DNA of 64,000 bases from Psammoneis japonica (lineage: Eukaryota), in the NCBI GenBank assembly GCA_008632985.1, contig QPGO01000261.1, positions 1 through 64,000 of the forward strand. The letters run 5' to 3'. A program made the translations under genes and the position numbers. The notes beneath the pieces are model-generated. The model was not told where the DNA came from. It searched no databases and was given only the letters and a program-made list of their open reading frames with translations. Positions 21,107-64,000 of this stretch are shown in pieces. How positions within the stretch are numbered: the first letter of the stretch is position 1; each line of letters starts with the position of its first letter.

Positions 21107-21743
21107 CTTTTTGAAGACGAGACTTGTTTCCAAGCAATCCAACAATCCCAGGCAAGCAGCGCCAGTATCTTTTTCGTCTCACTCGATTTTGTGCAAGGAT
21201 GAGGAGTCCGTCACATTTGCTGGCTGCGTTGCCTCTCTGCGATGAAACCACTCGAATGGAGCAAATGTGTTGGTGTATCTGACGAGAAGAGACATTATCA
21301 AGGATGGGAATACTGTGTTGTATGAGGGATCATGGATAATGGCTCTTGCAATGGTGTCATGATAATGGCGAACGATGATTCTCCGTAGACGAGATGCCAA
21401 ATAATGCCGGAGGAGAGAACGGAAGAAGAATCATCATCGTCGTGCGTCAGTGGCGATTTGAGCACGGATTGCTTCTAATTCCTTTCTTTCAAGTAAAATT
21501 AGTACCACATTGTACGTAAAAAGGAATGAAAAGAAGGAATCTTGGGCGAGTGTATCTTTTGATCGTCATCACCCAATCAGCAAATTAATGTCACCGCCGC
21601 ACTCACTCGTCCATTCGTCCATTCATCCCGCCTCCATCCTCCATCACCCACCACGGCCACGTCGTTGTTGAAAAGGCCATTGTGGTTGCATGACTGTTGC
21701 TCTGTTCCAGCCAACATCACACACACACAAAACAACAAACAAA

Positions 21744-39132: not shown

Positions 39133-39480
39133 CAACATGCCGAGTGTCACGGTCATCTGTGTTCATTCGTGGGTGTCAGCCCGGTGTCAAAAGGATGTCA
39201 ACGATGACACTTTCTAGAAACCTCTTCTCTTTTCTCGACACATCTCGATGCCTCTCGAAAGATTGTTTCTTTGTGTTTCTGCGCAGTTTCTTGGTGTTAA
39301 TTCTGTGAGATTTCGGAGCAGCCGAATCTCTTTCATTTCTTCTCACAACATTGGCAACAGTCAACTTTACAACGCCATTTTACACTGCCACTTGGCACCA
39401 CTTGGCACAGCAAATTTGCTCCCAAATGCTTGTTCATCTCTCTTGAGACATGTCCACCGACCACATTGTCCTGACCAGAC

Positions 39481-43702: not shown

Positions 43703-44996
43703 CGCCTCAATTGGGGAAGCGAGCGCCGAGTGTCACGGTCATCTGTGTTCATTCGTGGATGTCAGCCCGGTGTCAAAAGGATGTCAACGATGACACTTTC
43801 TAGAAACCTCTTCTCTTTTCTCAATGCATCTTGATGCCTCTCGAAAGATTGTTTCTTAGCATTGATTCTACAAGATTTCGGAGCAGCCGAATCTCTTTCA
43901 TTTCTTCTCACAACATTGGCAACAGTCAACTTTACAACGCCATTGGTTCCTCCTCTTTTAGGTGGAACTCTCTAGATCGAAGTCTGAAACCGAAAGATTT
44001 TGGATTGCTGCCCTCGCCACTGTCAGAAAATAGAGCCATGACGATTGCCTGCACCAATCATTTTGCTGCATTTTGCGCCGGGCGTTTGAATTAATTGCAA
44101 CACATGACGGTTGTTTCGGTGCACACTTTTGCGCAACCAACGCGACATGACCAATGTGCGTCAGTGTGTGGTGCTGGTTGTTTTGCTTCTGACCGTTCTG
44201 TCTTCTGTGAGGTTTCATGAGGCTGTCTCTGCACATTGATGTTGTCCAGTTGTGCATGTTGATGTTGTCTAAGGCAAGCTGCGTTGGATTAAGTGAGTGT
44301 GGAAATGTACGAAATTTACGCGTTGTTGCAGTTTCTTTGCCAAACAGTCAGCCCTTGTTCATGGCCATGCTCAATCCGCGGCGGCTTAAGTGAAAGTCCA
44401 TGTGCATGCATTTTGCTTGTTGATGCGGTTGTCTTTGCCAAACAGTCATTTGCAACTTGCTCAATTCCATTGTTTCTGGCCATGCTTCTTCTGAAGGGAC
44501 TTTGCTTGCTCCTTCTCCTGCTCTGCCATCTCCTCCTCGGTGAAAAATCTCCCCGACCGCTGTGGAATCACCGCTGCATGTGCTGCCTTTAGCTCCTCCA
44601 TGGTTGAGTCATCCTTGGGCGCGACCGTTGTTTCCACATGATGACTGTCCGCTGTCGTGTTGTCTTGCACAAGTGCAGAAGTGACATCAAAATTTCCCGA
44701 GGTGAGGTCAAACGCCACTCTTGCTTCTTCCAAGGTAATCTCCTCTTCGTCTTCCTTGTTCATCAATGACTGAAGAAGTTCCGCACGTGTCTGCACCTTT
44801 TTCTTGTCCTCACCAGTTTTCTTTGGCTCATCTGCCTTCTTTGTTTGTTGTTGCAAATCCATGTTTTCTCTGTTGCTGCATTTTCTGTGACGGTTGCGTT
44901 CGCGTTTCTTGGTTTGTTGGTTAAAATCCATTCGACGTTGTGTGACGCATGTGCAGATTTCCACGCAATGTGCTGATCTAATTGAAACACATCACT

Positions 44997-47900
44997 TTAC
45001 GAAATTTCCACATTTTTGCGGTTGGGGTCGCCAAACAGTTGCACAGTGGTTGAGCATCCTAATCCAATGTTTGCGCACTGCATCAACATTTCTGCGTGCT
45101 GTTGCTGAGAAAAACATGTGGCGCTTCTCTCCTTCATGAGTCTTGTCAAGGCTTCGCAGCCTTCTGGGACCTTGCATTTTTGCAGGTCCTTGCTTGGTGG
45201 CTTTCGCATGAACAGCCCTTCTCTGGTCTTTGCTCTGGAGAGCACAACATGCACCCAATTCTGAGTGTAGCTCCAAGAGTGTGCAAACAACTGCGGGACT
45301 CCACTCCCTTGCAGTTTGTGCCCTGCAGTGGCATTGTTGATGACAAACGGCAGCTGGGTTGCCTTCAGTTGGAAAGTGTGCCTTTGTTTGTCGCCTTCTT
45401 CTAAAATTAGGCTGGGCTTGGCGATGCAAGCCCTGAAAGCATTTGTTTTTGGCTCAACTAAAAACTTCGCGGGGTCGATGCTTTTGTTGCAGTGTTCCAA
45501 TGCATCGTGGTCTACCTGACTGGCAAGCACAGCAGGAATGCTGATGTTGTTGTCTAAAGTCACCAGTCTTGGTTCCTGTCCTGGTTTGAGAACGACCTCG
45601 TCAACAGTGGCTTGCGTTCCATTTGCTTGACCGTTTGCTGCATTTTCATTGAAAGGTGTCATGACTCTGCATCTTCTGTAAATTCGTAAGACTGGGTCCA
45701 TTCTTCCTGATTGCATGATGACGTCTCCTTCACCACAGTTGTTCCAGAAGCTGTTGCAAACCGGAAATGGTTGGCAGAGTCTCGTGCCATTCTGCACCTG
45801 CAAGTCGTCACTGAAAATCAACATTGAGTCAAGGACGTCTCCATCTCTTCTGTGCAGTGTTTCTGCTCTTTTTTCGAATGGGCCAGTGTTGATTGCATCT
45901 CTGTCCTTGTTTGCGTGCGCAGCATGGCGGAGGTCACTGGACAGATCATCTTCATTCTGAACCACTCGTTCGTTGATGTGCTCTACATCGTCAACTGCAA
46001 TCTCACCAGTGCGGAATCTCTCAAGCAGTTTTCCCCATGATGGATCGTCTTTAAACCTGTGCACACCACGAAGTTCTATGCAGCAGCTGATCCACTCGTG
46101 AAACTCGGGACATGCATCTTTGCACAGTGGTTTCACTCCTTTTCCGACTGGCTCTAGTTGCCTGAGGTCACCTGCAAAAACAATGTTGACACCACCGCGC
46201 GGCTTGCTCAATTCGCTCTTCAATGCTGTTAAATTCTCATGGAGTTTTTCTAGTTCTCTCTTGCTTGCAAAAGAAATCTCGTCTGCCACCAAAAGTCTCG
46301 TGTCTGACCATGCTTCAATTTGCTCTTCGGTTGTTTGCTTTCTTCTCATGAGGCATGCAACTCGGTGGATTGTGTCCCCTTTGAGAACAGTCGCAGCCAC
46401 TCCGGTCAGTGCAGTTGCTCTGATTGTGCTTGTTGTGAACGGCTGCTCAACAAGCGAGCAATGCTCTCTTCCGCATTCCACGACGAGGTCCATTGTGGTT
46501 GATTTGCCACTTCCACCTGCACCATGTAAAAAACACACAAGTTGCAACGTTCCACGTCTTTGCACTTCCACGAGTTTCTTCAATCGGCGAAGGTTTGTTG
46601 CGAATTCGTGTCTGCCATTTCTCCTGTTAAGTCCATTGCGTGACGTCTTGTCTTGAAGAGCGTCTTGGCAGCAAGTGAGCACAAAGGTTCCTGCTAGAAT
46701 TTCAAAGGCACGCTGCTGTTGCCCATCCAGTCTTGCTTTCCTGGCCCAGTCTACGATGCTCACTGCAGATCCGTTTGCTTGACGTACATCGACGTGTTCT
46801 TCCAAACCTGTTGTGTCCTCAAACGACCTTCTTGTTCTTTGCGTTCTAGTCAGTGTCACTCAAACAATGTCATCTCTTGACAGAGGTCTGCTGTGGATGT
46901 GTTGTTGCACTCCTTCATTCTGGTCTTCCTCGTCGGTGTCATCGCCGCCCTCTAGATTCTCAAAAAGTTGTCGTTCATCAACCTGGCTTTCCTCGTTTGG
47001 TGGGTCAGTGTGCATGTCTGCCAAGCATTTGCAACCACCCATGTGTGAACCTTTCTGTCTTGCACGTTTGCTGCTCAAATGCGCAGGAATGACTGCTTGG
47101 TTGCTCAACCCAATGTCATCGTCTTCTGGCTGCTCTGCCATTTCTTCCAAAAGTGCATCCAGCAGTTGACCCTGAATGGCGCCTGAAAGACCTTCTTCCT
47201 CGTCACTTTCGCAACAGTCAAACGCAACGTCAGCAGGTCTAAATTGCTCCGTCTTTCTTTGAAGATCGTCAGATGTGCTTTTGAGACGAAGGCAGTTGGA
47301 CTTGGCATCCTGCAGGTTCTGCAAGAAGTTCAAGTTTTCCTCTGCAATGACACCGGCTGCTGCGGAGAGTTGGAATTCACACAGGCATGCATGGGTCATT
47401 GGTTTGAGTTCCGTCATTGTTCTGCAAGGTGCAAACAAGGCCAATGCCAACTTGCAGCACAATTCTTTGTCCAGTGTTGTTGGTTGCTGCGGATCTGTGA
47501 GGCAACTGCCAAACTTGGCTGCATCAGGAAAATCATGCTGAAGTGCTTTTAACAATCGCGGTTGCTGTCGCTGTCTGACACCTTGAAGAAACTTGTTCTT
47601 CGTTGAATCACAAGACAGGTGCCTGTGTGCTCTGTTGTCGAACATCATCATGCCATGTTCGTTTTTCCTTGTGTTGCGAAGAACTTCGCACTCACTAAAA
47701 AATGCAAACGGACTGAGATTCTCCAGTGCTGTTGGACGACATGGGCAGTGCAAGGCCTGGCATTGGAAGAATGGTGCATCGCCAAAATGGGCTACAGTCG
47801 CAGACACTTCGTCTCTTTCTAGTGTGCTGACAATGTCTTTCAAGGGGCACCATGCGGTCAAATGAGATTCGATGAAACGGCTTCCGTTCCTTGTCATGTA

Positions 47901-50727
47901 AGACGCAAGTGGTGGTCCAATGACGTTCGTCTTGTCATGCGAACAAGCACCCCATGTGAGACGTCTGATTGCTTCCGATGCATCAGATGCATGTTTCCGT
48001 AATTCCGTTGCCATCCTGTTTGCAGTTTGAAGCACTTCGTCGTACGATGCAGTGTCATCTTTCTGGGCATCTTTTAGGATGCACTTGGTCGTGCATTGAG
48101 CAGACGGTCCAGGCATCAACAAAGCAATGTTTGTGTTGCATGTCAGTTTTGATCTGCTTGTTGCAGGGCATGACACGTCTTGAAAAGCATTGTGCTTTCT
48201 CCTCTTCGGAACAACTTCCTTCACGTGCCAATGCGCAAAAGTTCCATCCCAGCTGAACCACTTTATCTGAGTGTCATCTGCATTCCTTGCCAAATCATTT
48301 GGACACAAAGCAGCTGGTTGCCTGTGACGGCAGTCACCCAGTTTGAGCTCCTCTCATTTCCTTTTCCTTGACTGCATGTCCAGCTCCTCGTGTGGGGTTT
48401 TTTCACGCATTTTGTGCAACTCTGCGCATTTGGGAAAACACGACTTGTAATGTGCATGTGATGGTTGTAAGCTGCGTCCGGCACACATGCCTCCATTGTC
48501 CCTTGCGGACCACTTCGCTGGTGTTGCACACACATTGTTTTTAGTTGCTTTGCATGGTTGTCTGGACAGCGAGTCAGGCCAGGTGCACGGTGCCGTGACT
48601 GTAAAAAGCTTTCTACAAACTCGACGTTTGTCCAGTGCTTGGTGCAGTGACGACAACAAGCAAACATTCCGTTCTTCGACTGCTGGCCGTCTTTGTGCCT
48701 CAGGTTTCTTAGCTGTTGGTCGTCCACTGCTTTTGGAGAGGTGCGATGCATTTTTGGCACTGTGCAGTCATGATCGAATGCTTCACGCAACGCGTTAGTG
48801 CTGAAGTCCTCGCTGCAGATTAATTCCATGCTGCAGATCTTCTGAACTGTGTTGGCAAGGCACTCAGCACCTTCGCGTCGGATCTGTCTTGTTGGCGAAT
48901 GCAGTTTCTCTCTTGCATTGTGATCGATGCGAGCCAGATCTGCATGTGTCCGTGCACTGTCAGACGTCCCTGCTCCTCAACTGTGGCTAAAAATGTGGCT
49001 GGCCTGCCAATGCAGAAGTTAAAGTTTTCTCTTGGTTGGTCAGTGCTCAGATCCCAACCCACTGCCTCTTCTGTTGCAATGTCAAACAAGCACTCAAGTG
49101 CAAAGGCTGTTAGACCGGGAAACTTTAGACGCAGTTCATTACGTTGCTTGGCCCTGCTGGCAAGAATTTCGTCTGTCAGTTGTGTCACGTCTTCGTTTGG
49201 GTCCAGGATGACACCCGAGCACAGTTGCACAAGAAACGAATTTGCATCGTCCGGACTGACGGTTAAGAAAATGCCACCCTGACCAAAATGATGCTGACAA
49301 GTTTCGGCGTTTCTCCTCATTTTCTTTGCTGCTTTGTCACTGTGTGGCAGAGACGCAGATGCAATGTCGAGTGCGCGCAAAAAGTGGTGCCCGAGTCCAT
49401 GGTCTCTTCTCTTGCCCAAGTTGCGATCACAAACAGCTCCATCCACATCGTCCGCTGTCAGTTCGTTTGCAAACTGTGCAGCCTGATTCTTGTCCCTGAC
49501 TTTCCACCCTGTGCTCTGCAGCATCCTTTGCTTCATTGTCAAGTTGTGGCATGTTAACACGAAGAGCTGCTCGTGGAAGTGAGGCTGGGAAATCCGTGCC
49601 AAGTGGTCGGCACAGTGTGCAAGGTTGGTGCCATCTGCAAGACTTCCGTCTTTCTTCATTCTCGTCTCATTGATTCCTCCTCTGCCAAAAGGAAACTGCA
49701 GCAGACACGCGTCAATGAAGTTGTTGCCTTTGAAATCACTCGCAGATTCTTCAGACAACTGTGCTTGCACCTCTAAATCAAATCCGTTGGCAGCAGCTTC
49801 GTGTGCAAGATCTTTGAAGCAGTCCAGGTTGCGCTGACCACCGGTCGCAGGAGACATGGTTCCATCAGGAAAGTGAACATGAAATGACTCTGAGGTCTCA
49901 ATGTTCGTGTTTTCTCCTTCTTCTTTGCTGGTGCTGTCGACAAGCACGGGATTCCGCAGATTACGCCCAACTTCGTCTAGATTCATCTGTTGGCACACCC
50001 ACTCTTGGTTGTGGTGCAACAGCCATTCCATCGCCCTTGGCATGCAGTGCGCCCTAATTCTGTTCTTTGAACGCGCAAGTTGTCTTTGCTCCGGAGTCAT
50101 CTTTCCAGTCATCAGTGCAATCACATTCTGATGTAAATTCAGCACGTCGAAGTGCACAACAGTTCTTACGATGCTTTGCATCTTGACTTTGCAGTGTGTC
50201 AGACTTCCCTGAAGCTTCTTCTGTTTGCCGCCAAGGCAACTGAAGCAGCATCCGCATGTTTTCACTGGTGTGAGCATTGCCAATTCTGCTTCGGTTAGAG
50301 ACAACAGTTTGTGCGGCAGGGTGCCGAAACAGCAGTTGTTCGCTGTCGCGTGCATTGGCACAATGGCTCTTCCCAGGCTTCTTCGGCATTCGCTGCAGCA
50401 AGTGAATCCATCGACGCGTTGTCTGTCTTCCTGTGCTGCGTGTTGGGCACGGGGAGAAAGCAGCAGGTCTTTGATCCAATCAGCATCTTCATGCTCTGCA
50501 GTGCAGCAGGACTTGAGACGATCAGATGTGCTGTTCCAGTCTGAAGGGGTGAGTGAGTTTCTTGCTGATTCCAATGTTTCGAGCGGCAAGTGGCAAACTT
50601 CTCTAGGTTTCAGCAGAATGTCACAGACTGAACATGCGTGTGGTCTAAATTCTCCATCTCTGTGTGGACAAAGCATCTCAAACTTTCCATTGATTGCATT
50701 GCAAACACGGGAGTTGGCCTCGTCCAT
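44997..50727 (-). pseudogene. Helitron Rep-helicase (HUH endonuclease plus PIF1 helicase), fragmented
   Basis: CLLQFPFGRGG, IFLTVSPDD, HUH motif VEEQGRLTVHGHMQIW; PIF1 motifs HGAGGSGKS, ALTGVAA, DEISF, GGVNIVFAGDLRQLEPV, HKLQG, VVLSR. In-frame TGA at 46860 and frameshifts at ~48300-48900. Confidence 0.92.
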
Positions 50728-50819
50728 TTTAATTTAAGCTGACACTTTGGCTCAACAAATTTCAAGAAGTCACTCAGCAAAAACAGTTGTTTTTTCAGTG
50801 CGATCACCGTGAAGCTGCG

Positions 50820-51495
50820 ATCGGTGCCATCCAATCACCACAGCGATGTGTGTTTTCTCACCACCTGCAGCACTGCAACTGGTGTCGTCCAGTCACCACA
50901 GTGGTTCTGTCTGGTTGATCAGCGAACCGCGTCGGTGCCATCCGTTCACCACAGCACTGTGTCGTCTTCTCACAACCTGTGCAATCAGGTTGCTGTGAGC
51001 ACTGCGACTGGTGCTGTCCAGTCACTGCAGCCGAGTTGATTGGTTGCTTGACGAACTGTGTCGGTGCTGCCCGATCACCGCAGCGTTGTGTCGTGTTCTC
51101 ACAACCTGTGCGATCAGGTCTCTGTGAGAGCTGCAACTGGTGTCGTCCAGTCACTGCAGCTGAGCTTGTGCGTCATCTCACAGCCTGCGTTGCGAGGTGC
51201 AGCGCTGTGTTGTTTGCTCACAACCTGTGCAATCAGGTCGCTGTGAGAGCTGCGACTGGTGTCGTCCAGTCACCGCAGCCAAGTGAATCAGTTGCTTGAT
51301 GAACTGCGTCGGTGCCATCTGATCACCGCAGCATTGTGTCGTGTTCTCACAACCTGTGCAATCAGGACTCTGTGAGAGCTGCGACTGGTGTCATCCAGTC
51401 ACCGCAGCTGAGCTTGTGCGTCATCTCACAACCTGCATTGCCAGGTCACTGTGAGAACTGAGAACTGCGATCGGTGTGGCCCAATCACCGCAGTT
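50820..51495. repeat. Degenerate tandem repeat (~110-130-bp units, about 5 copies) upstream of Rep
   Basis: Recurring TCGGTGC..TCACC.CAGC, CTCACAACCTGTGC.ATCAGG and CTGC.ACTGGTG..GTCCAGTCAC.GCAG. Confidence 0.85.
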
Positions 51496-52295
51496 GGATG
51501 CTTTTCGTTTCCCTTTGCGCAAAGGTTCTGTCACAAAAAAGTGAGACGAAAGTGTGCCTCTTTCACCTCGACGGAAGAGTGACGTGCGCGTTCCTCCCAT
51601 GTCCTTCTTCGCACCAGACGTGCGACACCCTGCTCAGTTTCGTCGACATTGAACATCCCATGGGATGAGATTTGGATCTTGTTCAAGTTGTTTCGACCAT
51701 CTGCTCTGAACATTCCATGGGGTGAGATTCAGATCTTGTTCAAGTTGTTTCGGCAATCTTGGTGGTGGGCGCAGCTTTACGTGAATTCCGCAGAATCATG
51801 CTTTAACGAGTGGCGGGGCAGTTGAGTTGGTCGTGTGGCAACAACAATGCGATTGACGTCATTCGTGTTTCCAAAGTGCGCGCGAATCCTCCAAATGGGT
51901 GATGGGCCCACCTTAGCTGGCTGCCGGCACAGCAGTGACAGCGATGGCGTCGACCGTTTGGCGACTGGATTTCGTGTGCGATGGCCACGCGGCAGCAACG
52001 GCTGAAATGCACACGAAGCACGGACGGAATTGCACGTGATTTTATGCATTTTCAGCAAACTCAGCGCGACTTTGCGTGCTCCGATCCTTGCATCTGTTTT
52101 GTTCAAATTGAATCCATGCACCACTTGCAAGTGCTGACACCTGGAAGGTCACCTTGTTGCAGTTCGACGTGTTTGGATCTAGTTGCTGACGTTGCCAGTT
52201 CTCCTTGGTGTGATGTGCGCAGCTCCACTGGGTCTTTCTTGGCACTTCTGAACGATCGCACTTTTTGTTCCCACAATTTCTCTCCGACTGATTCG

Positions 52296-53168
52296 ATGGC
52301 ATGCAAAAGAAACACAACGACCTCCCCGGCTGCGAAAGCCAAAGTCGCCGAAACCAAACAGAAGAAGGCAAAGACGAAGTTTTCTGATGCTCTGTTGAAG
52401 AAACTAAGTCCGCCCCGCAAGACCAACGGCTTGACCGACGACGACCTTAAACCGGAAGACTGCCTTGCCAAGCACGGGTTCAAGCTTTCCAAATCTGCCG
52501 GTTCTGATGATGGCAGCCATTCCGACAAGGACGCCCTCCTGCGCTGCGCCACCATCACTGTCGGCCGCAAGAAAGGCGTCGTTTTTCGTCTCCAAGCCAA
52601 GAATCCCATTTTGGCCAATGTTTGGTCAGAGAAGGTTCTGTTTGACAACCTTCGCAGCAGGACTCCGTGGGCGGTTCAAGTCGGATTCCACCCTTGCACT
52701 GGCAGGTGGGTTCACGAAGGCGAGTTGCAGACGAACGCCAAGAACTGCGCCGTGCGTCTCTTCTTCATCTTCCTCGAAGAAGTCCCAACTGATGCTAAAG
52801 TGCAAGGCCTCGGGAAGTGCATTGCGAAGCAGCTCAACGATGACCCTGAGAACAACACCGAGGTCTTCGTTGAAGACGACTTCTTCTGGATGAAGGATGC
52901 TGTTTGGTCCGAAGTGATCGGCAACGAGGCGGCGCTTGCCAAGCTTCAGAAGGAAGGTGGTCAGTTTCACATCGGTTGGTGCGCCCAAAACAAGAACTCA
53001 CTTCACAGTTGCTTCTACGAGGGGTCATTGCCTGTGGAACTCTGTCGTCTCATTGGAGCTCCTGCAGAAGAAGCTGGAGAAGAGGCCGACGATGATGTCG
53101 AGCTCAACTGTGAAGTTGACCTGAACGTCAATGACGACTTGGTGCTTCAGGACAGCGACGAAGACTGA
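52296..53168 (+). CDS. Helitron cargo protein of unknown function (basic N-terminus, acidic tail), hypermutated
   Basis: 290-codon open frame with clear codon bias and protein-like composition, followed by a T-tract. Confidence 0.6.
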   Translation: MACKRNTTTSPAAKAKVAETKQKKAKTKFSDALLKKLSPPRKTNGLTDDDLKPEDCLAKHGFKLSKSAGSDDGSHSDKDALLRCATITVGRKKGVVFRLQAKNPILANVWSEKVLFDNLRSRTPWAVQVGFHPCTGRWVHEGELQTNAKNCAVRLFFIFLEEVPTDAKVQGLGKCIAKQLNDDPENNTEVFVEDDFFWMKDAVWSEVIGNEAALAKLQKEGGQFHIGWCAQNKNSLHSCFYEGSLPVELCRLIGAPAEEAGEEADDDVELNCEVDLNVNDDLVLQDSDED

Positions 53169-53253
53169 GTTTTTTTTTTTTGCCGGTGCAGTGTAAATTT
53201 GTAAATGTTTGGCAAACTAAGTGTCGATTGCAACTCAGCTTTCCTCTGTCTCT

Positions 53254-54240
53254 TCAAGCACGCACCATCTCCGATGACAACTTGTTGTTGCCGCGAAGCA
53301 ATGGCGAATTGAGCAGAGCAACTAGCGTGTGACGTCTGGTGCAGTGACAGCAAAAAAACAGCTCAGTTGAGTTCTTGAGCAAAATTGGCCATTTTGCGAC
53401 GGGTGAACACTTCCGTTCCAAGTGTGTCGGAGTGGGATGTTGCATGTGCTGGCTGGTTGACTGAGAAGTCTCCTCTTTCTTGGTGCACTTGTGGAAGACG
53501 AGATGTTTCACATCTCCGCTGTGCCACAAAAAGTCGCCATCATGGCAATCCGCCGTGAAGGACTCGCACATCCACTCTCCCGCGTACGACGCGAACAGCG
53601 GATCTAGCGCCACCACCACGGTCCCAGCACGACACAACTTTGAAAGCATTGCCTCTGCCTTCTGCTGTGTGTTCTTGTCGTCGACCATGCGGGAGTTGCA
53701 GTTGTTGAAGAACACCTTGAGTCCTTTCTTTTTCCACAAAGGAGCCAGCCTCTTGTCCAAGAATGACTTGTGGATCAACTCCAACCCGCCGTTCGAGCGA
53801 AGGCCAGCACAATGAGCCCAATGCACAGCCTCTTGGTGACGATCGTGGTCGGCCTCGATGCTCACCATGGTGCAACGGTGACGAAGTGACTTGAGCCCGA
53901 TGCTGGGTCCGGCAACTCCCCCGCCCATGTCGACAGATGCATCGCAGGTGTGATTCACGCCAAGAAGGCATTGGTTCAAAAACACTTCGCTGCTCAAAGC
54001 GAAGCCAACTTCGCCACCGTGCGAAGATCCGCTTCCGTCTCCGGAGACATGCCTGCTCTGGAACGCGGAGTCCGGAGCCGTTTGAAGATGAAACTCCCCA
54101 ACACTTCTGCAACGATGGTTCATCGCACCCAACCTTGTGGCAACATCAACCTTGCTTGCAGCGGGTTCGACCAGACGTCGCATTTCCAAACCAAACTGTG
54201 ACGTGCGCAGAATGCGTAAAATTGCCGTCGTGCCCTCCAT
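53254..54240 (-). CDS. DOT1-like class I SAM-dependent methyltransferase (Helitron cargo, hypermutated)
   Basis: Ordered motifs SSHGGEV (YGE-like), DASVDMGGGVA (motif I), SIEADHDRH, LIHKSFL, VFFNNC (NN motif), GTVVVALDPL. Confidence 0.65.
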   Translation of the reverse strand: MEGTTAILRILRTSQFGLEMRRLVEPAASKVDVATRLGAMNHRCRSVGEFHLQTAPDSAFQSRHVSGDGSGSSHGGEVGFALSSEVFLNQCLLGVNHTCDASVDMGGGVAGPSIGLKSLRHRCTMVSIEADHDRHQEAVHWAHCAGLRSNGGLELIHKSFLDKRLAPLWKKKGLKVFFNNCNSRMVDDKNTQQKAEAMLSKLCRAGTVVVALDPLFASYAGEWMCESFTADCHDGDFLWHSGDVKHLVFHKCTKKEETSQSTSQHMQHPTPTHLERKCSPVAKWPILLKNSTELFFCCHCTRRHTLVALLNSPLLRGNNKLSSEMVRA

Positions 54241-54663
54241 GCGCGCAAAATTTTCAAACGCGGCGTGCTGCCTCTACCTGCGCATGGAGCAACGTACAAA
54301 GTCATTTTAAACAGATGTGCAGACGCGTTGAAATGATGAGACGCCTTCAGGCGATAAAATTTGTTTTGAATCTCGGCCTGCTTCTCATCGTCACCGTACT
54401 TGCACATCCATGTAATTCAAACGCACGAGCTGGCACGGCACGTAACGCATTTCTACGCGAGAACTCGTGCTGAGATTGCCGTGGGATGATCCTCCCTCCG
54501 CGGAGACAAAAACAACGCGACAACACTTCCGTCATTGCATTTTGAAACACATTTCAAATTGAGACACACCATGTCACAACTGCCTCGTGCCTCGCTGCGT
54601 CGTCCTGCCAACGACAAGCACTTGTCGTGATCGAGTTACAGCCGGTCTCGACAGTGTGGGGGT

Positions 54664-56004
54664 TTGGGACGTGCAGCTTGCAGCCCGACAACAAGCAAAT
54701 GCTTCTCGCGATTGGGTTTCGACCCCACTCCCCTGGAGTCCGCCGGTCCCTGTCAACAGAGTTTTGCTTTGGGTGCTCTTGAGGCAACGGAAAGCAGACA
54801 CATCTCTCGATTAGGTTTTGACCCCACTCCCCTAGAGTCTGCCGGTCCCTGTCGACAGAGTTCTGCTTTGGGCACTGTTGAGACAACAGTGACAGTGTCA
54901 AGCAGCGGAACATTTGCCGGCAAGTTTGCACACACGTTCTCTGCAAACACCGCATCGTCAATGCGCACCAGGATGTACGAGAACATGTTGAGGGCTCAAC
55001 CGCCACTTCGTAAGGCCCACCGCAGCTGCAGGCGAATCTGCAGCCACGCCAGCAGGAAAACATCCAAGATCACTCGCCTTGCTCCACTCGCACCGTGCGC
55101 CACTAAGAGTCTCTCCACACACTGCGCAGCCAACCGCACTCCAGTTTACAACGGCAACTGCACTCAGCCTGCACCACCTTGTCTTGCTGACATTGACTTT
55201 GCCGAATTGGCTCCTCTGGTCGTCTGTGACCCTGTGCTTGATCTGAAGCCTTTCTTTGGCTTGGACGGTTGCCGCTGCGACAACACCTGCACCCTGCTGC
55301 TGCGTTCTGCTGTGGTGTTCAGCTCCCCCAACCCAGCAGAGCCAGTTGCTCAGCACCAAGCGCTCGAAGCACTAGAATGCTGCACCGCCCAGTCCACCGT
55401 GCGCGGCAAACAATGCGTCACCTTCATGGAGACGGACAGGAGCAAGCATTCCACGATTGGCCTGGCTGCCACGAGAGATGCTCGAATTTCTTGCAAGCAG
55501 CCTGGCATGGCCGACCAACACACTCACCACCTCACCAGACTTCTTTCACGCATGGAGCACCTTGTCAATGAGCGCGTGGACTGTGCCATCCTCAAGGGTG
55601 TCGCTCGTGTCAAAAAGTTTCACAACTGGAAATCCCTGGTGCGGTCAGATGGCATTTTCTCCTCTCTGGCGGCTGGGTGCAATGTCTTCCTCAACGCCCA
55701 TCGGGACCAGGACTTCTTCCTGTCAGCAGTCACCGTGGTGGGAGTCCCTCCATCCGGCAGCCACACCATGAATGACGGGATTGTGGCGCACTTCTGCTTC
55801 CCTGCCGAAGGCATCTCCGTTGCACTCTGGCTTGGTGATGTCATCATTTTTAACCCCACCAAGTGCCACTGCATCTCCAGCAGGACAAACTCAAACGACG
55901 AGTTCTTCTGCATGTCTCTCTGCCTGAAGAGTGCTGCAGTGGGCAAGAACAACAATTCAATCCCCCTTTCTCTAGAGGAAGAGACCATTCTCAGGCGACT
56001 GTGA
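54664..56004 (+). CDS. TET/JBP-like Fe(II) dioxygenase (Helitron cargo, hypermutated; true start uncertain)
   Basis: NVFLNAHRDQDF (HxD), HFCFPAEGISVAL.LGDVIIFNPTKCHCIS (distal His), CMSLCLK (R-x-S-x-Y position). A ~100-bp tandem duplication lies at 54703-54890. Confidence 0.65.
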   Translation: MGRAACSPTTSKCFSRLGFDPTPLESAGPCQQSFALGALEATESRHISRLGFDPTPLESAGPCRQSSALGTVETTVTVSSSGTFAGKFAHTFSANTASSMRTRMYENMLRAQPPLRKAHRSCRRICSHASRKTSKITRLAPLAPCATKSLSTHCAANRTPVYNGNCTQPAPPCLADIDFAELAPLVVCDPVLDLKPFFGLDGCRCDNTCTLLLRSAVVFSSPNPAEPVAQHQALEALECCTAQSTVRGKQCVTFMETDRSKHSTIGLAATRDARISCKQPGMADQHTHHLTRLLSRMEHLVNERVDCAILKGVARVKKFHNWKSLVRSDGIFSSLAAGCNVFLNAHRDQDFFLSAVTVVGVPPSGSHTMNDGIVAHFCFPAEGISVALWLGDVIIFNPTKCHCISSRTNSNDEFFCMSLCLKSAAVGKNNNSIPLSLEEETILRRL

Positions 56005-56226
56005 CAGTGCAAAATAACTTGCTAAATTTGCGTAAATTTGCTGACTTTCTGCACTCAGGCGACTGTGCAGCTACCCACCAATTTGCTAGATTTGCGCAAA
56101 TTTGCCGACTTTCTGTTCTTCCTCGTTCCCATTTTTCGAACCACAACTGGGGCTGCGCCTTTCCAACTGATGCAACAGTTTCGCTGAAAAACACCAACAC
56201 ACTGTGCTGCTAATTTGCAGAGCACA

Positions 56227-57789
56227 CTACACGGCAGAGCTTCTCCCCCCCGACTTGGGGAGTAGACGCGATTTCTTCTTCCGATTCATGGCACCCGACG
56301 TCGCCTTCCTCTTCTTCTTCTTCTTCTCTGATTCATCCAAGTTGCATCTGGAGAGAAATTCCTCCCCGGGCATGATTCGCTTCGTGACTGCCAAGCACCC
56401 ATCGTTGTAGAACTCGCAGTTGTTGTCCATGTGTTGGCTTGCCTTGATCTTCTTCTTGTCCTTGAACAACTTGGTGGCATCGTTCACGCAGTGCATTCCG
56501 AGGTAGAGTGGATGGGAATTCTTGTTCCCTGGACCGCTAAAATCAAGCGGTTTTGGCTCCACTGTGACGTGGCAGCCCTCGCTGTCACGGATGGTGGAGC
56601 AGCACACGCTGTGGTCTTCTCCAAACTTGCTGTCGTGGTCGCACCACGAGCAGCTCCTTGTTGCACCGGGCACCCTGGGGCCCACGTAGATTCCAACCGT
56701 GCTGCCTTTCTGGAACTGGCGCAAAGCAAAAAAACCAATGCCTGCGCCCCTCCGTTGCGACACGCGCAGCTCGCCCACCTCCACCTCCTTGGGGCCTGCA
56801 GAGCGAACGGACTTTTTGAGGCAAAACAACGCAGGTTGAAGTGACACAGCGCCTCATCCAAATGTGCACACTTCTGCACTGTCTCTCTTCATGAGGCAGA
56901 CCAGTGCGAGCAACCACCCCGCTTCGAAAGCCTCGACGGCGGTCTTGAACACTTTGTTGCTCTTCGGCGTCGAGTCTGGGATGCCCCTCTCGCCGACTTC
57001 CATGCGGCACCTCCACACCCACTTGCAGCGTTCGCCGTGAGCATTCGCAACGGCTTTAGGGTCTCTCCTGATGCACCCCAGTTCTCCCAGCGCGGGGAAC
57101 CAGAGGTCGGGATCATTCGGCGCATCCTTCATCAGGCACATGGACTCCTGGAAATTATCGGATTTTTCATGCCGCAACACCCAGCCCCACAAGTCGAGTG
57201 ACGGCTCGTTGGGGTCCGGAAATTGCTTTCCTTCTTCTTCCTCTTCTGCCGTTGCTTTCGCGACCACTTTGGCCGCGGGCTTGGCTGCCTCCTCACTTTT
57301 GCCGCTGCAAAAAGGTGGGACCTCCGGTTTCACAAAGGTGGCCTGATCACCCACCAACTCGATCTTGCAACCGGCCTTGAGGAGCTGCTCGGTGGTGCAA
57401 CCCAGCTGCTGTGCTTCATTCCAACCACAAATTTGAAAGGTTGGCTCCGGCGGCACGGCTTTCTCCCTCTTTTCAGTTTGGGACTGCGCTGGCTTCTCTG
57501 ACATCCTTGCGCATTCGGACTCAATGGACACACCCTCGGCACTTCCCTCGGCGCCAAGTGCAGTCATGGCAGCTGCCGCCATGTCTTCGGTGCCCGTGAG
57601 TTCTGCCATGACTTCCGGAGCTGCCACATCCTCTGCTTTGCCAGACGCAACGATGTTGTCCTCCACCATTCTAGCGCCGTAATGACAGAGCTGCACTGAC
57701 TGCTGTGTGGTGTGCTGCTTTGTTCCAGCCGTTGGCGATCCACATCCTTCTGCGCACACAAACGTGTGACACTTTGCACCAAATTCCAT
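56227..57789 (-). pseudogene. SET-domain lysine methyltransferase-like protein (Helitron cargo) with one in-frame TGA
   Basis: VSQRRGAGIGFFALRQFQKGSTVGIYVG, MHCVND, NNCEF, TKRIMPGEEFLSRCN. ORFs 57789-56854 and 56847-56227 are in the same frame. Confidence 0.8.
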
Positions 57790-58437
57790 GTGCCTGACGC
57801 ATCAGGATGCAGTGCGTCTGCACCTGTCTACATCCGTCTTCACTGCTGCACGCACTGCGGTGCTGCAGCGCACCCTTTCAAACCTTCATTGATGTTCATT
57901 TTTTCCTTCCTTTTCCTTTTCTCTTCTTCTTCCATCTGGCTGGGAGGAACTGCTGGACAGCCGGTGTCATTTTACACTGCTGCTTGGCGCCACTTGGCAC
58001 AACAAAATGATCAGCCTCCAGCGCGAACCTCGTTTTGCCGAGTGTTTCACGTCCCAAGGCTGAGGGCTTGTGGGAGGAGCAGGTTGGGAGTGTGTCATCT
58101 GTCTCGATGCAGCAAGTTAGGCATGCTGGACATTCAGTTGCGCAAGGACAATGACGTTGGGCATGGCCAGATTACAATAAAGTGACAAGGACCAAACTGG
58201 CAGAGAAGTGTGGAATCGTTCTCTTCTTTTTAATTTGTGGCAAATGCAAACAGTCAGTTGTGTTTGCAAGTTCGTCGAAAGGTTCTTCAAAGCAGGACCC
58301 ACAGCATTTTTTCTCATCTTAGCGACTTTCTTAAAGCTCTGGCGTTGCAAGGAGCTCCTCAAAGGCTAATCCTTCATCATGCCTGAACAACAGTACAAAG
58401 TTCTGTTGGCTCGTATACAAGAGCGATTTAGTGTTAA

Positions 58438-58834
58438 GGGTGGTCGGTTGCTACTTTTTTTAGCTCGAATTCGGCCGAATAGCTCGTGTTTTGCATGATT
58501 TTTCCTGAATTTCACCGTGCTTCACCGTGGTGAAAACAACAAGCCATAAGTCTGTGACGGAGGTGGTCCGTCTACCAACTCTCATTTTTTATTTTATGTT
58601 TGTTATGTATCAAAGATTGTATATACATGAAAAGTTGGTAGACGGCAAACTACGTTTTTGAGAAACATCGATGATTGTCATCATCGTCGTGCTTCGATCG
58701 CGGTGCTGATGGTTCTCGTTTTCGTGCGCGATCGGGTGTGACTATGAACAATTCTTGTATTCAAAAATAAAGACTATAAAAAACCTTATTCAAATGCAAC
58801 GGTAATTTTAGGATAAACGCGGGGATGACCCCCC
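58438..58834. mobile_element. Possible non-autonomous Kolobok-like DNA element (397 bp)
   Basis: TTAA at 58434-58437 and 58835-58838; ends GGGTGGTC / GACCCCCC (7/8 inverted match); internal IR CCGTCTACCAACT / AGTTGGTAGACGG. Confidence 0.45.
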
Positions 58835-59239
58835 TTAATCGGACAACTAGAAAAAAGAAAAAAGAGGAGTCGTATTTACGATGTGTGCATATAGAAAAAA
58901 GATACGTCAGATATTGCCTCTACAAGTTGAAAGTAGGAACGTTGAAAGGTGTCAGATGCTTTCATTAGGGCCTTCTCTCTTCACCGTCTAGTGTTGAGTA
59001 AAGCTCAAAACCTAGCTCTAGAGAGGAACAGGTGTCGATTGGTCGATCCATTATTTCAGAGCCACCCTGCAACGGCGTTGTAACAGGCTAGCCACTTCTT
59101 AGCACTGCCTGCTTTCCACCGTTGTGAACTCGAACAAAGCTTTCCACGCTCGAGTCAATACCTGGAATCTCTTGCTTGCCCCGTTCTCTTCGACGTACTG
59201 TACTGCAGTAGTTTGTCGTGCAGTACAGTGCATCCCAAT

Positions 59240-59526: not shown

Positions 59527-62500
59527 CTAGATGCCGCTAGACCCAATATTTTGAGCATTAGCATATGCTTCCAAACTTTTGGGAATGGGAGGAGTTGTTT
59601 CGTCCACGCGATGCTCCTCAACGTATCGGACCAGCTCATCTTTCAATGACAATTCATCCCATTCTGGCTTGTCTCGATCACACTTGAGACGTTCAATGAG
59701 GTCTGGCCACAATCTTCCGACTAGATACCTTGCTGGATCATCTATCCGAGCCTCGAGGTAGATCATCCTCTTTAGAGATGTAGCAAACTTGTCGTCTTTG
59801 TCCAGCTTCCAAAGATACGGGAAAACCTTCAAGAAACTCCGCTCCCGTCGCATCATGAAGGTATTGAGCTCCATGACACAGTAGCGACTCTCTCGAAAGT
59901 TGGGTGACAGTATAATCACGGCATGGGTACACGTATGCGCAGCTTCGAGTAGAGAACGCATCTGGTCTTCCCCAGTTTTCAAGCTTCCATCATCCATGAA
60001 GGTCTTGACGCCCAATCTTCTGGCGAGAAACCAATGCGTAGGACGTGCAATAGTCTCTTTGGTATCGATACCTCTATGCGACAAAAACACATACGGATCG
60101 CCACCAAGGTTGACCTGCCAAACACTGCTAGGATCCGGAATACCTGCCATGGACAACTCTCCCACATCTGTCTCGATACCATCCAACCGTGCTTGCGTGT
60201 ACAAGCTGGAAACGTTGCGTCCACCGGCTGTAATCTGGGGGGCAACCGTACGAGCTGTGTAGCCCGTTCCGTCGAGAGGAGATTGTAAACTGGAATTAGA
60301 TTCATGTTTGGCTTCGTTCGGCTTGGCATCCTCAGGTATATCTTTTGCCATATAAAGGTGATTGAGGCGTTCCATCATTTTGTCAAGCATCTCATCCTTC
60401 CGAGCTTTCTTGCTCTCGTGGAAAGTTCCATCTCCAGTATGGAACACCCTTCCGACTTGAACAACTTCTTTGCATATATCACACACGAGAGAATCTGTTG
60501 TCCTCTCCTCAGCTACTTCAGACCAGTCGAACTCGTGGCACTCGTCGACGGCTCTCCCGAGCTTAATGCAGCGTGCACAAGCGAGTACACAGTCGAAATC
60601 CAAACCTGGAAAATGATCGTTTCGTTCCGCGATAACAAATTCGACGGCACCTTGTAACAACCTCCACATGTCCCGGTCAACGCGAGCACCACGAGCTGTG
60701 AATACTAACCATGCCTCTCCTTCCATCTCAACAATCTCCGACCGCAAGCGACGGTTGGTGTTCTCGTCGAGGACAATCGCACCATAAAGCCATGCACAGA
60801 TACATTTCCCATGCGCATGAGTCGCGGCGGCAAAATGTGCAGCGAGACTTGGAGGACAGCCTTCCCACATCTTCAGGCGTAGCTCTTGTTGCTGTTCATC
60901 ATCAGATAATATTGGCCACGCCTTTTGCAACTCTTCGGGTTGTACTTCTTTTCGTTGTCGAAAGAGAACCACGGGCTTGAGGCCACCCAAACTCTCATCA
61001 AGCGAAGATCCAAAAATAACGTCCGCATCCAGAAGCATCTGGAGGATCATTGGGAAATCTTGGTAATCATTTACCAGGTCATGCCACAAGAAGGGAAGAA
61101 TCGCGGGGTCTAACTCTCCCTTCTTTGTCAGCTTTTTGAGTCCGTCAATAATTGGATTCCGCAGTCCAGTAGGCCGAGCCACGATGCCTTTTAGAAACAT
61201 TCCGACAGTCCTTTTGAAAGCCTGCGCATTTATTCTTTCGAGCGTTAACGTGTGGTCTATGAGAGGTTTGATCAAGTCGGTTACAAAAGACGGTTGCAAA
61301 TACGCCAGCCCAGCATCAACAAAAATACTGCCACGGGCTTCAAGAAGTCCTAGTGCATCGCCAAACGTTGTGTCGTCAGCCAAGGGGGCGTGCAAGAAGC
61401 GGAATTTATTCCACAATGACTTGAGCCTCGCAACTGAAGAGTAAGGTCCTTTGGCTGATACATCCGCTTCGCCGCCGTCTGTAGTCGTCTTTATGTTCCC
61501 AATCTCGCCCAATGGAATGGCATCATCCGAACTTGCTACAGAGAAAATCGTTTCTTCATTGGCATCTGTGCCGCATTGAAGAACAGCGCCAAAGAATTTC
61601 CACAGCTCTTGCCATGACTTTGGGATTAGCGTACCGACACTTGACAACCTCGGCTCCGCATGATCCTGCGTGTGCCTAAAGATGGTATTGCTCACCTGTG
61701 CCTGCGAGCGTGCAATGGCGCTGCGGCTCGTTACGGATACTTCCAGGACATTGGGTAGGATCCGGAGCAGCGGCGGCTTCTTTCTTTCCGTCGAGTCCTC
61801 TGGAATGACACGATCATAAAGAGCACTTTCCTCTCCATCTCGACTGGCGGCGGCATCACGCCATTTTTGAAGCTGCCCTTGGACTTTTCTGAGCCATGCA
61901 CTCTTTCCTCGAGCCATTGCTTTTGTTCAGCCTCGTCCAACTCGTCCGGCACAAGATCAACCTTGGATAAGACAAGTTGCACCACGGCACCCGGTGCCCT
62001 TGCCTGTAGTAAAACCAGAAAGCGCTGCACTGACTCTTCATAGAAATCGTCGTGTGCCTTGTCCGCCGCCACGACCAGTAAAAAGAGCGACGACGCGTCA
62101 TGAATGGTGCCTGCCCGACAGCATAGTCTTGCTGACCGCCGCAGTCATAGACCATTAACGTAATTGGATCATCGCTGTATCCTTCGGGTGCATCTATCTG
62201 CACAGGTTCCACATTGAGATAGATGGTCCGTTCCTCCTCACCCTCTGTGCGCGCCGGGAAACGGCCCGCAATGGCATTCCGCAGGCTCGTCTTTCCTGCT
62301 TCCCCGTCCCCCACGAGCACCGTCTTGAGCTGTCTGGATGTGGTTGCCTCCCCTTTGTCCACGGCTTCAAAGTAACGAGCAATCGCCCGAGGCCCGTTGG
62401 CAACCTCGGGCGGGGGTTCCAACAGTGGATTACCATCCACATTAAAATATTTGCACGTTCCCTCAAGTTTCACAAAGGAGCGTGGAAGTCTTGTAATGTC

Positions 62501-63063
62501 ATTGTGCTCAATGTCCAGCTTTGGAGATTGACGCCAATGTTGGTTCTTCTAGGCTTTTCCAATGGCCGGCACCCTTGTCTCCAATGGAATTTGTAGAGAT
62601 AAAGCACGTCAATGTTTATTCGTTCTAGAGCTTTTCCAAAAGCCACGGCACCCTCGTCTCCAATGGAATTGCTGTCGAGATTAAGCTCCGTCAATGTTTT
62701 ATTCGTTTCTAGCGCATTGCCAATGGCCGTGGCACCCTTGTCTCCAATGGAAGTCCAGCCGAGATAAAGCCCCTTCAATGTTTTATTCTTTTCCAATGCT
62801 TTTCCAATGGCCGCGGCACCCTCGTCTCCAATGGAATTGCTGTTGAGATAAAGCCTCGTCAATGTTGCATTTGTTTCTAGTGCTTTTCCAATGGCCGTGC
62901 GCCCCTCGTCTCCAATTGAATTCCAGCCGAGACCAAGCTCCGTCAATGTTGGATCATTCTCTTGGAAGCGACGAATTTTCTCTTGCTCATTTTGTGGCAA
63001 AGCGACGACCCAATCCGCTGTCACGTCAATGCTGCTGCTGGAACTTGCCGAAGACTGTTCCAT
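59527..63063 (-). CDS. LRR-ROC-COR-TIR ROCO-family receptor-like protein, copy 3 (several small indels, possibly consensus errors)
   Basis: About five LRRs, ROC (61856-62473) and COR-TIR (59527-61917). Indels cluster at ~62470-62620, ~62095 and ~61890. Confidence 0.88.
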
Positions 63064-63658
63064 GATTTTGAAAACGAGACTTGTTTCCAAGCACTCCTGC
63101 AGCGCCAGTATCTTTTTCGTTTCACTCGAATATTTTGCGCAAGGATGAGTCGTCGTCCGTCACATTCGTTGGCTGCGTTGCCTCTCTGCGATGAAACTGC
63201 TCGAATGGAACGGAGCAAATGTGTTGGTGTATCTGACGAGAAGAGACAGTATAGTATCAAGGATGGGAATGTTATATTGTAAATGGATAATGGCTCTTGC
63301 ACAAGGGTAATGGCGATGCGGTCATGCCACACAAGATCCAAAGATGCCAAATGCCGGAGGAGAAAACGGAAGAAGAACATAAATCCTCATCATTCTCGTG
63401 CGTCAGTGGCGTTTTGCGAACGGATTGATTCTGATTCCTTTTTACAGTTAACTTAGTACAAGAGACTACGTTGAAAACTGAAGAAAAAGGAATCTTGGGC
63501 GAGTGTATCTTTTGATAGATCGTCACCCAATCAAAAAAGAACACCGCCGCACTCGTCCATTCATCACAGCCATCCCCATGCATCAAAGGAAACCCAGTTG
63601 CATCACTGCTGTTGCTCTGCTCTAGCACACATCACACACTCGAAAACAAACAAACAAA

Positions 63659-64000
63659 ATGGGAAAAAAGACAGCTGATGCGAGTCTCAAGGGCAAAAAG
63701 CCCATTCATCGAGGCACTTCAAAGACTGCCATTACGTCCAATCCGGGTCGGATCGGGAACAAGCTGAAACGTTCGGAAATGTACGGAAAGTATCTCATGG
63801 AAAAGAAGCGTCAAAAGAACATGGCTCGTCGCCAACGCGCCAAGGAAGCCGAGGCACTCGGAGAAGAAGCTCCGGAAAAACCCACGCCGCGAACTCTTGA
63901 GAACACGCGAGAGTTGGAACCGACGTTGGTCAAACCACACGATGAAGAAGTTGCTGCCGACCAAGCCGAAAGATGAGTTTGCACCCTACTTTAACGATCA
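63659..64000 (+). CDS. RPF1: RPF1 copy 3 (partial at the window end; 1-bp insertion at ~63970)
   Basis: Near-identical to 2203 onward, with mostly synonymous differences and Tyr codons retained. Confidence 0.9.

Follow-up and report, generated by a model that had tools for sequence, protein, structure and literature searches.

A transposon-borne TET/JBP-fold dioxygenase family in a diatom-type genome and its probably impaired copy in Psammoneis japonica

The window analysed here is a stretch of 64,000 nucleotides of Psammoneis japonica (positions 1 to 64,000, forward strand, of contig QPGO01000261.1, assembly GCA_008632985.1), and the subject is a gene towards its right end that encodes a putative dioxygenase. 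The gene belongs to a distinct, Pfam-unannotated family of TET/JBP fold whose genes are carried by DNA transposons in genomes of diatom type. The favoured reading, held as probable and short of certain, is that the family consists of Fe(II) dioxygenases carried as transposon cargo and likely oxidizing 5-methylcytosine (5mC), and that the window copy is impaired. The protein is not filed as a canonical Tet_JBP member because it lacks the strand-VIII arginine of TET enzymes and stays short of the Pfam threshold.

The gene lies in a single open frame of the + strand that runs from 54631 to the stop codon at 56002-56004 (457 codons), with its earliest in-frame ATG at 54961. Residues are numbered by the 367-residue translation of 54901-56001, counts out of 151 refer to the window protein and its 150 best relatives, and 2OG stands for 2-oxoglutarate. 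The landmarks are the following.

54961..56004, + strand: open reading frame (ORF) of the TET/JBP-fold dioxygenase, ATG to stop, 347 codons plus stop
54631..54960, + strand: upstream part of the dioxygenase frame, open and without ATG, with a 99-nucleotide tandem duplication inside
55699..55713, + strand: HRDQD, that is H267-R-D269-Q-D271; H267 and D269 are iron ligands, D271 is a third, near-invariant Asp
55828..55830, + strand: W310 (TGG), at a position where the family has Arg or Lys; a CpG transition would turn CGG into TGG
55867..55869, + strand: H323, the distal iron-binding His in HCISSR; His in 151/151, within model strand E323-325
55882..55884, + strand: R328 (AGG), the second conserved basic residue after the distal His, kept in the window
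55903-55929, + strand: FFCMSLCLK, F335 to K343, with two TGC codons
55903..55905, + strand: F335, which structurally takes the place of the Arg that binds 2OG in TET enzymes
55909..55911, + strand: C337 (TGC), first Cys of FFCMSLCLK, at the position of TET2 S1898; the family consensus residue
55921..55923, + strand: C341 (TGC), second Cys of FFCMSLCLK, in place of the base-stacking aromatic (TET2 Y1902)
55927..55929, + strand: K343, counterpart of the base-contacting TET2 H1904, NgTET1 H297, CMD1 R418 and CcTet R393

The ATG-less part, 54631..54960, is probably a 5' leader or promoter and not coding. The two units of its duplication (54693-54788 and 54792-54887) are 84% alike, the extension of BLASTP alignments upstream of the ATG to the Seminavis protein P0005 is weak and unconvincing, and the region 54537-54656 is structurally variable among the other copies of the stretch. 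A weak H-x-[YF]-x...SS..R motif of the relatives is aligned by MAFFT immediately upstream of the ATG.

The predicted fold is that of a TET enzyme. The AlphaFold2 model, built with a 67-sequence alignment, has a mean predicted local distance difference test score (pLDDT) of 92.8 and a predicted template-modelling score (pTM) of 0.92, and comprises a core folded as a double-stranded beta-helix (DSBH), with a TET-type N-terminal elaboration. In a Foldseek search of the PDB the top ten rows are all CcTet, with E values of 2.7e-9 and up, while TET2, CMD1 and NgTET1 come at about 1e-6 to 1e-5, mixed with GA3ox2, PHD2 and FTO. In a search independent of Foldseek against 48,161 PDB representative chains, TET2 (17.6), NgTET1 (13.6), CMD1 (13.0) and CcTet (12.5) occupy ranks 1-4, and ALKBH1 follows at rank 5 with 10.5. 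The N-terminal 110 residues of the model are matched by TET2 and CMD1 only; the matches of AlkB type begin at about residue 113-125. The sequence identity to the TET structures is 10-14%. Since the best structural matches are TET enzymes and not dioxygenases acting on other molecules than nucleic acids, the identification of a TET/JBP-like dioxygenase in the initial annotation stands.

The register of the active site was read from the final aligned pair of a second model, predicted to end exactly at K343 (pLDDT 91.7). In this model K343 pairs with residue 1904 of TET2 in 5/5 entries, with residue 418 of CMD1 in 5/5, with residue 297 of NgTET1 in 3/3 and with residue 393 of CcTet in 3/3. It also pairs with residues 212 of AlkB, 277 of ABH3 and 324 of FTO, eight residues before which there stand R204, R269 and R316, respectively. 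The available portions of PMC7854593 and PMC11040006 give for TET2 the triplet R1896 (2OG anchor), Y1902 (lying under the flipped base) and H1904 (base contact), for NgTET1 R289 (2OG anchor), F295 (aromatic) and H297 (base contact), for CcTet R385 (2OG anchor), F391 (aromatic) and R393 (base contact), and for CMD1 R410, the aromatic F416 and the base contact R418. In all four triplets, as given there, the spacing is constant, with the aromatic residue at +6 and the His or Arg at +8 from the first Arg. The strand of the model is unbroken across 335-341, and insertions or deletions across 335-343 occur in 0/151 sequences. Because of the K343 pairings, the constant spacing, the unbroken strand and the absence of indels, the Arg position is placed at 335, and in the modelled register 337 is the position of TET2 S1898, 341 that of the stacking aromatic and 343 that of the base contact. 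The cysteine that had earlier been assigned to the 2OG-binding Arg position is thus not there: neither Cys of FFCMSLCLK occupies that position, and F335, eight residues upstream of K343, does. Lys343, whose pairing in the model is direct, is basic and is neither the His nor the Arg of the known TET base contacts. At the equivalent of the stacking position in CMD1, the F416A variant is reported in the available text to lose activity 8-fold (PMC7854593).

The family preserves the metal site and the two positions that in TET enzymes meet the flipped base. The iron triad is H267 in 151/151, D269 in 148/151 and H323 in 151/151, which bears out the earlier observation that the HxD motif of HRDQD (H267-D269 at 55699-55713) and the distal His (H323 at 55867-55869) are retained in the window. 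D271 is Asp and K343 is Lys in 149/151 each. Position 341 is Tyr in 142 sequences, Phe in 4 and Cys in 5, the window included, and the loci read independently from metagenome DNA have Tyr there in 74/75, Phe in 1/75 and Cys in 0/75. The stacking aromatic is thus a property of the family that the window protein, with Cys341, does not share. Position 337 is Cys in 103, Ser in 13, Val in 13, Ala in 8 and Thr in 5 of the 151 sequences. Position 335 is Val in 59, Ile in 47, Leu in 11, Tyr in 9, Phe in 8 and other residues in the rest, with Arg or Lys in 0/151. The missing 2OG arginine is accordingly a family-wide trait and not a lesion of the window copy. The co-substrate site had been called ambiguous in the initial annotation, and it is indeed unusual, in the whole family and not in this copy alone.

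Two other basic positions may be relevant to the missing arginine. Position 310 is Arg in 122, Lys in 15, Cys in 7, Gln in 2, His in 2 and Trp in 1 sequence, the window alone, and in the metagenome loci it is Arg or Lys in 70/76. Position 328 is Arg or Lys in 123/151. A basic residue is found at 310 or 328 in 149/151 sequences: at both in 111, only at 310 in 26 and only at 328 in 12, the window being among the last. Two sequences are basic at neither, and one of them is P0002, the closest relative. The full H-D-D-R-H-R...Y-K pattern is present in 8/8 of the metagenome loci linked to a Helitron RepHel gene. In CcTet, Tyr361, which lies 15 residues before the distal His, hydrogen-bonds the same 2OG carboxylate as the arginine, according to the available text of PMC11040006. 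Residue 310 of the window protein lies 13 residues before its distal His.

The comparison with the family separates what the window copy has inherited from what it has lost. C337 reads as ancestral because Cys is the family consensus residue at this position, and C341 reads as a stacking Tyr lost through a single TAC to TGC transition. Two of the origins previously considered for TGC, ancestry and descent from TAC, are thereby each assigned to one of the codons, and the third, decay of CGC, fits neither. A change of CpG type is instead found at W310 (TGG), where 137/151 sequences have Arg or Lys; the residues other than Arg or Lys at 310 are best read as products of CpG transitions in CGN codons. 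At the 28 columns that are at least 80% conserved the window departs three times (Y183H, one Leu to Ile, and Y341C). Because the stacking Tyr and the basic residue at 310 are lost and the element is otherwise dead, the window copy is probably weakened or inactive despite its open frame. As a separate observation, Y183H (TAT to CAT, 55447-55449) and Y341C (TAC to TGC, 55921-55923) are both T-to-C changes in a G-T-A context, the former on the + and the latter on the - strand; with no more than two events, and with two of the three bases already set by any TAY codon, this is an anecdote.

The family is large. A phmmer search of 1.84 billion representatives finds 674 relatives, themselves representatives at 50% identity, at E<=1e-3, of which 387 have E<=1e-10 and 2 have E<=1e-30. 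The closest, P0002, is 43% identical (E 3.2e-64), reads HxN in place of HxD, has lost the basic residues at both 310 and 328, and looks decayed. The named members are diatom proteins, one of Seminavis robusta (CAB9526612.1) and two of Fragilaria crotonensis. P0006 and P0216 are labelled as proteins of bacterial metagenome-assembled genomes (Comamonadaceae and Nitrosomonadaceae); the contigs are suspected to be mis-binned, the alternative being genuine relatives in prokaryotes or phage. The unannotated phage family phrog_24024 is matched by 46/67 members (best E 2.6e-6), the window protein itself not being among them, and these sequence matches suggest that the family has phage relatives. In a language-model atlas, 23/30 of the nearest clusters belong to a set that partly bears Tet_JBP (score 0.96). 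The profile 2OG-FeII_Oxy_6, a Tet-like family, matches 1/67 relatives at E 0.004. P0046 scores 17.2 bits against Tet_JBP, the cut-off of which is 34.9, over profile positions 75-162 of 164, and this weak match stops one residue past the conserved Tyr. A phmmer search of the ORF against PDB sequences returns only a chance match to TCP-1 (E 0.21), and a word-indexed protein search returns nothing with the single protein and one already-known relative with the alignment.

The stretch of about 14 kb in which the gene stands is CpG-depleted and looks like a repeated Helitron-like element, apparently present in many copies. Its parts and its left neighbour are listed below.

43941..57975, no strand: apparently multi-copy stretch with the RepHel remnant, two ORFs without assignment, the TET-like gene and the SET ORF
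44997..50733, - strand: Helitron RepHel remnant with DUF6570, Helitron_like_N and PIF1 helicase domains by Pfam
51939-53168, + strand: long ORF of 409 codons between RepHel and the dioxygenase gene
53254-54273, - strand: long ORF of 339 codons between RepHel and the dioxygenase gene
56230..57801, - strand: SET-domain ORF, convergent neighbour, with one in-frame TGA at 56854-56856
39139-43944: long terminal repeat (LTR) retrotransposon, with LTRs at 39139-39379 and 43725-43944 that are 87% alike and an integrase at 42392-43702

An in-frame TGA at 46860-46862 and frameshifts near 48353-48976 interrupt the RepHel remnant; at 48446 and 48920, the points at which the window RepHel shifts frame, other copies have one base more. 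The remnant lies 4.2 kb from the dioxygenase gene, inside the common stretch on which the contigs pile up. The SET ORF has at 56838 one base that other copies lack. Its match to the Pfam SET profile has an E value of only 0.11, and this weak match is the sole one given by Pfam for the dioxygenase ORF and its four neighbours. In the atlas, SET sets of 19 and 7 are found among the 30 nearest clusters of the SET ORF (score 0.95), and a relative 35% identical to it is convergent to the TET-like gene in the metagenome locus L055. The ORFs 51939-53168 and 53254-54273 have no Pfam match and no relative among 77 metagenome loci.

The evidence for repetition comes from the contigs of one public DNA run, which may be the window's own source, mapped on 43900-58900; 0.38 of the sampled words are present in this run, X1. 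In all, 3817 short contig pieces that are 90-99% alike pile up on 43900-57927 with a summed depth of about 1900-5500, and the adjoining 57938-58461 is covered by clean contigs at a depth of about 67 with 0-1 differences. The pieces differ from one another by 197 transitions and 11 transversions, with many CA/TG pairs that share a site; this transition excess with its CA/TG pairs is the signature of CpG decay in diverged copies. The right edge of the repeated stretch is at about 57.93-57.98 kb, and the left edge is masked by the abutting LTR element. The ratio of observed to expected CpG is 0.62 in the dioxygenase ORF, 0.67 in RepHel and about 1.0 in the Roc-TIR genes of the window; across the window it ranges from 0.27-0.45 in repeat-rich parts (at 24-36, 4-8 and 12-16 kb) up to about 1.0-1.28 in cellular genes. 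This pattern agrees with a targeted methylation of CpG and with repeat decay. Just past the start of RepHel, at 50821-51446, there are tandem repeats of about 129 and 248 nucleotides.

Elsewhere in the window, a segmental triplication (1-3620, 19328-23155 and 61552-64000) carries LRR-Roc-TIR genes that are 77-93% identical; 2260 three-way aligned sites of it were polarised, and C>T change is highest at GCG and TCG. A run of N at about 12.9-13.7 kb, seen as X in two ORFs (12892-13683), is an assembly gap.

The association with mobile elements recurs among the relatives. A scan of metagenome contigs with a 12-sequence alignment yielded 77 loci, which form 47 clusters at 85% nucleotide identity, and the genomic context was counted in the 20 clusters that have 3 kb or more of flanking sequence. 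RepHel adjoins the dioxygenase gene in 4/20 clusters and in at least three arrangements: divergent upstream (L013, L016, L017, L020), tandem upstream (L001), downstream on the same strand (L006) and downstream in convergent orientation (L030, L031). The RepHel ORFs beside the relatives are intact, with 1522-2050 residues. A Plavaka transposase is found in 1/20 clusters (L007, E 6.5e-16). A large convergent ORF of a superfamily 2 (SF2) helicase, with DEAD/ResIII and Helicase_C domains, is present in 8/20 clusters (loci L034, L038, L046, L050, L051, L058, L060, L065 and L068); it has up to 1540 residues, its N-terminal half is without known domain, and in L060 it has no match among PDB sequences. 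This ORF may represent another kind of mobile element. In one cluster (L024, L025, L027, L028 and L029) there are long ORFs on the same strand (about 1300-1433 residues, and 1013 residues) without Pfam match, and the 1433-residue ORF of L024 has no match among PDB sequences.

The following mechanism would account for these findings. The family keeps the HxD...H triad, the TET-type N-terminal elaboration, and Y341 and K343, which would handle a flipped base; the 2OG carboxylate, with the strand-VIII arginine gone, may lie near Arg or Lys at 310, 328 or both. The genes ride on DNA transposons, here a Helitron-like, CpG-decayed and apparently multi-copy element of about 14 kb that also bears a SET-domain gene, and oxidation of 5mC on the element would, by analogy with the TET-bearing transposons of fungi, blunt silencing based on methylation. 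The window copy sits in a dead element, with RepHel broken, a stop in the SET ORF, Tyr341 changed to Cys and Trp at 310.

A number of observations weigh against this reading. As to the family, Pfam assigns none to the window protein at E<=1, Tet_JBP is matched by 0/50 relatives at E<=0.01, and at E<=10 Tet_JBP appears in 14/67 relatives (best E 0.0023), as often as Cupin_2, which likewise appears in 14/67; the A1 profile finds nothing among PDB sequences at E<=10. The canonical TET arginine is absent from every sequence of the alignment, and only the order of the strands places R/K310 and R/K328 near the 2OG carboxylate, at the barrel's closed end, where strand VIII begins. As to the carrier, a copy number cannot be read from summed contig depth, and the single joint that resembles an empty site (43940 to 57971/57976) is weak, with 22 nucleotides on its shorter side, and abuts the LTR end, which has a similar short motif. 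No convincing Helitron ends (TC...CTRR, on the RepHel strand) were seen by eye near 43.94 and 57.97 kb, and no RNA run is on record among the listed runs that hold the stretch. As to the relatives, 7/20 clusters have none of the three mobile-type neighbours, and L003 has ordinary cellular ones (cyclin, ankyrin, RING). As to decay, the window ranks 34/151 for departures from conserved columns, and its frame is intact.

The alternatives concern the co-substrate, the substrate and the state of the copy. It is rather unlikely, though the lack of any Arg or Lys at 335 invites the idea, that the family does without 2OG altogether and uses ascorbate, as CMD1 does, or another co-substrate, perhaps writing a glyceryl-type adduct or some other unusual base in place of classical 5mC oxidation. 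The R385A variant of CcTet, altered at the equivalent position, is inactive, and this Arg is termed highly conserved in the Tet superfamily (PMC11040006, available text); CMD1 itself has a TET fold in which the Arg is not used and has switched to vitamin C (PMC7854593, available text). CMD1 is, however, not the clean precedent that it had been taken for in the initial annotation, as it retains the Arg in its sequence and excludes 2OG by pointing it away and filling the site with Trp358, according to the same portion of that paper. The 149/151 sequences with Arg or Lys at 310 or 328 may just have relocated the anchor. In some other 2OG oxygenases the anchor is a Lys or a residue of another strand. 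Whether the substrate is 5mC at all has two contenders. A JBP-like thymine hydroxylase that makes 5-hydroxymethyluracil (and 5-formyluracil), and so could raise T-to-C change, is distinctly improbable. The TET/JBP fold alone does not separate enzymes acting on 5mC from those acting on T, dioxygenases of T are known from phage and dinoflagellates in the available part of the literature, and there is no catalytic-domain structure of JBP among the matches with which to compare. T>C change at RTA amounts to 11/177 site-lineages against 97/3201 at other T (odds ratio 2.1, p 0.027), in a single uncorrected test on the three paralogous Roc-TIR segments of the window; this one weak count, small, drawn from cellular paralogues and unlinked to the dioxygenase gene, is all that stands behind the suggested link to T-to-C change at RTA, and nothing in the analysis points to T as the substrate, a possibility that had been raised as a speculation. 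Against T as well, D271 (149/151) resembles the Asp or Asn that bonds N4 of 5mC in NgTET1, CMD1 and TET2, with a spacing one residue off, and such an Asp is argued in the available text of the CMD1 paper to disfavour T (PMC7854593); the portion available of the paper on phage T-dioxygenases gives no residue-level rule for T versus 5mC. The CpG decay of the carrier makes 5mC the readily available mark.

That the enzyme instead works on protein, RNA or a small molecule, with only the DSBH fold in common with TET, is very improbable indeed: the 10-14% identity and the blank Pfam result would allow it, but the four TET-family representatives fill ranks 1-4 of 48,161 with a gap before rank 5, the N-terminal 110 residues are matched by TET2 and CMD1 only, the base stacker (142/151) and the basic base contact (149/151) are the most conserved positions other than those of the metal, and the next-best matches, ALKBH1, AlkB and FTO, are enzymes of nucleic acids. 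With regard to the state of the copy, there is little likelihood that it is functional and domesticated by the host, C341 and W310 being tolerated or adaptive, for instance for an altered substrate. Such a view could draw on the 457-codon open frame, on the retention of the iron triad, R168, R328 and K343, on departures at just 3/28 highly conserved columns and on Cys341 in four other relatives. The copy is, however, flanked by the broken RepHel and the stop-bearing SET ORF in the CpG-depleted, apparently multi-copy stretch; Cys341 is absent from the 75 metagenome loci, P0002 looks decayed as well, and the only ATG has the conserved N-terminal motif upstream of it. Beyond these alternatives, a bolder proposal, to be taken as speculative and doubtful, is that the element is a diatom Helitron-like cassette of epigenetic counter-defence, in which a TET-fold dioxygenase without the canonical Arg, having a relocated anchor or a co-substrate other than 2OG, is combined with a SET methyltransferase and maybe makes a base modification not yet sought in diatoms. 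The probable reading stays that of transposon cargo likely oxidizing 5mC, with an impaired copy in the window.

The family numbers hundreds in public metagenomes. If active, it would offer a concrete route by which diatom transposons erase CpG methylation, and it is also a naturally occurring test of TET chemistry in the absence of the strand-VIII Arg. The window copy is of value as a marked, probably disabled member, of which Y341C and R310W are ready-made mutants.

Compared with known systems, the family shares with TET2 (PDB 5d9y, 4nm6, 7ne3) the HxD...H triad, K343 as the counterpart of H1904 and Y341 as that of Y1902. It differs from TET2 in its identity of about 11%, with no Pfam Tet_JBP match for the window protein, in having Val, Ile or Phe for R1896 and Cys for S1898, in its size of about 350 residues without the long low-complexity insert of TET2, in the Asp that follows HxD at +2 and not at +3, and in being transposon-borne. 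NgTET1 (PDB 4lt5, 5cg8) has R289, has its recognition Asp at +3 and lacks a counterpart of model residues 1-50. CMD1 (PDB 7cy4-7cy8) is alike in that K343 corresponds to R418 and Y341 to F416, and in that the strand-VIII Arg is unavailable for 2OG; it differs in that Arg410 is present and pointed away with Trp358 filling the site (both in the available text of PMC7854593), and in being a cellular gene, the product of which has about 500 residues or more. The phage 5-methylpyrimidine dioxygenases may be akin through the matches to the unannotated phrog_24024, and phage relatives of TET/JBP are known, as far as the available sources go.

The closest parallel is found in fungi, where 11 lineages of transposons, Helitron and Plavaka among them, encode TET/JBP genes, which are considered to help them evade silencing by methylation, according to the available text of PMC12730594. 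In the PU, AG and PE types described there (Kojima 2025), the TET gene is likewise cargo of DNA transposons, Helitron and Plavaka included, and the sequences are extremely diverged, with only H, D/E and H in common, as here. CcTet, the top Foldseek match of the window model, is close to the fungal AG type, and it differs in needing R385, which the window family lacks (PMC11040006, available text). The host in the present case is a diatom-type genome, and the word 'Stramenopile' does not appear in PMC12730594. In the literature found, supplements and subscription journals lying outside the search, no transposon-borne TET-like gene is described in diatoms or stramenopiles, and papers on Ectocarpus transposons and on Replitrons have JBP only in their reference lists. 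One review, in its available part, says that diatom genomes have no 5-hydroxymethylcytosine, the lack of a TET enzyme being a possible reason, and also cites a thesis for TET homologues in Phaeodactylum. Beyond the fungal systems, a SET-domain gene rides along here, and a large SF2-helicase ORF is a third recurrent partner. What is new is thus the transposon-borne TET/JBP arrangement, known from fungi, in a diatom-type genome and in a family that Pfam misses.

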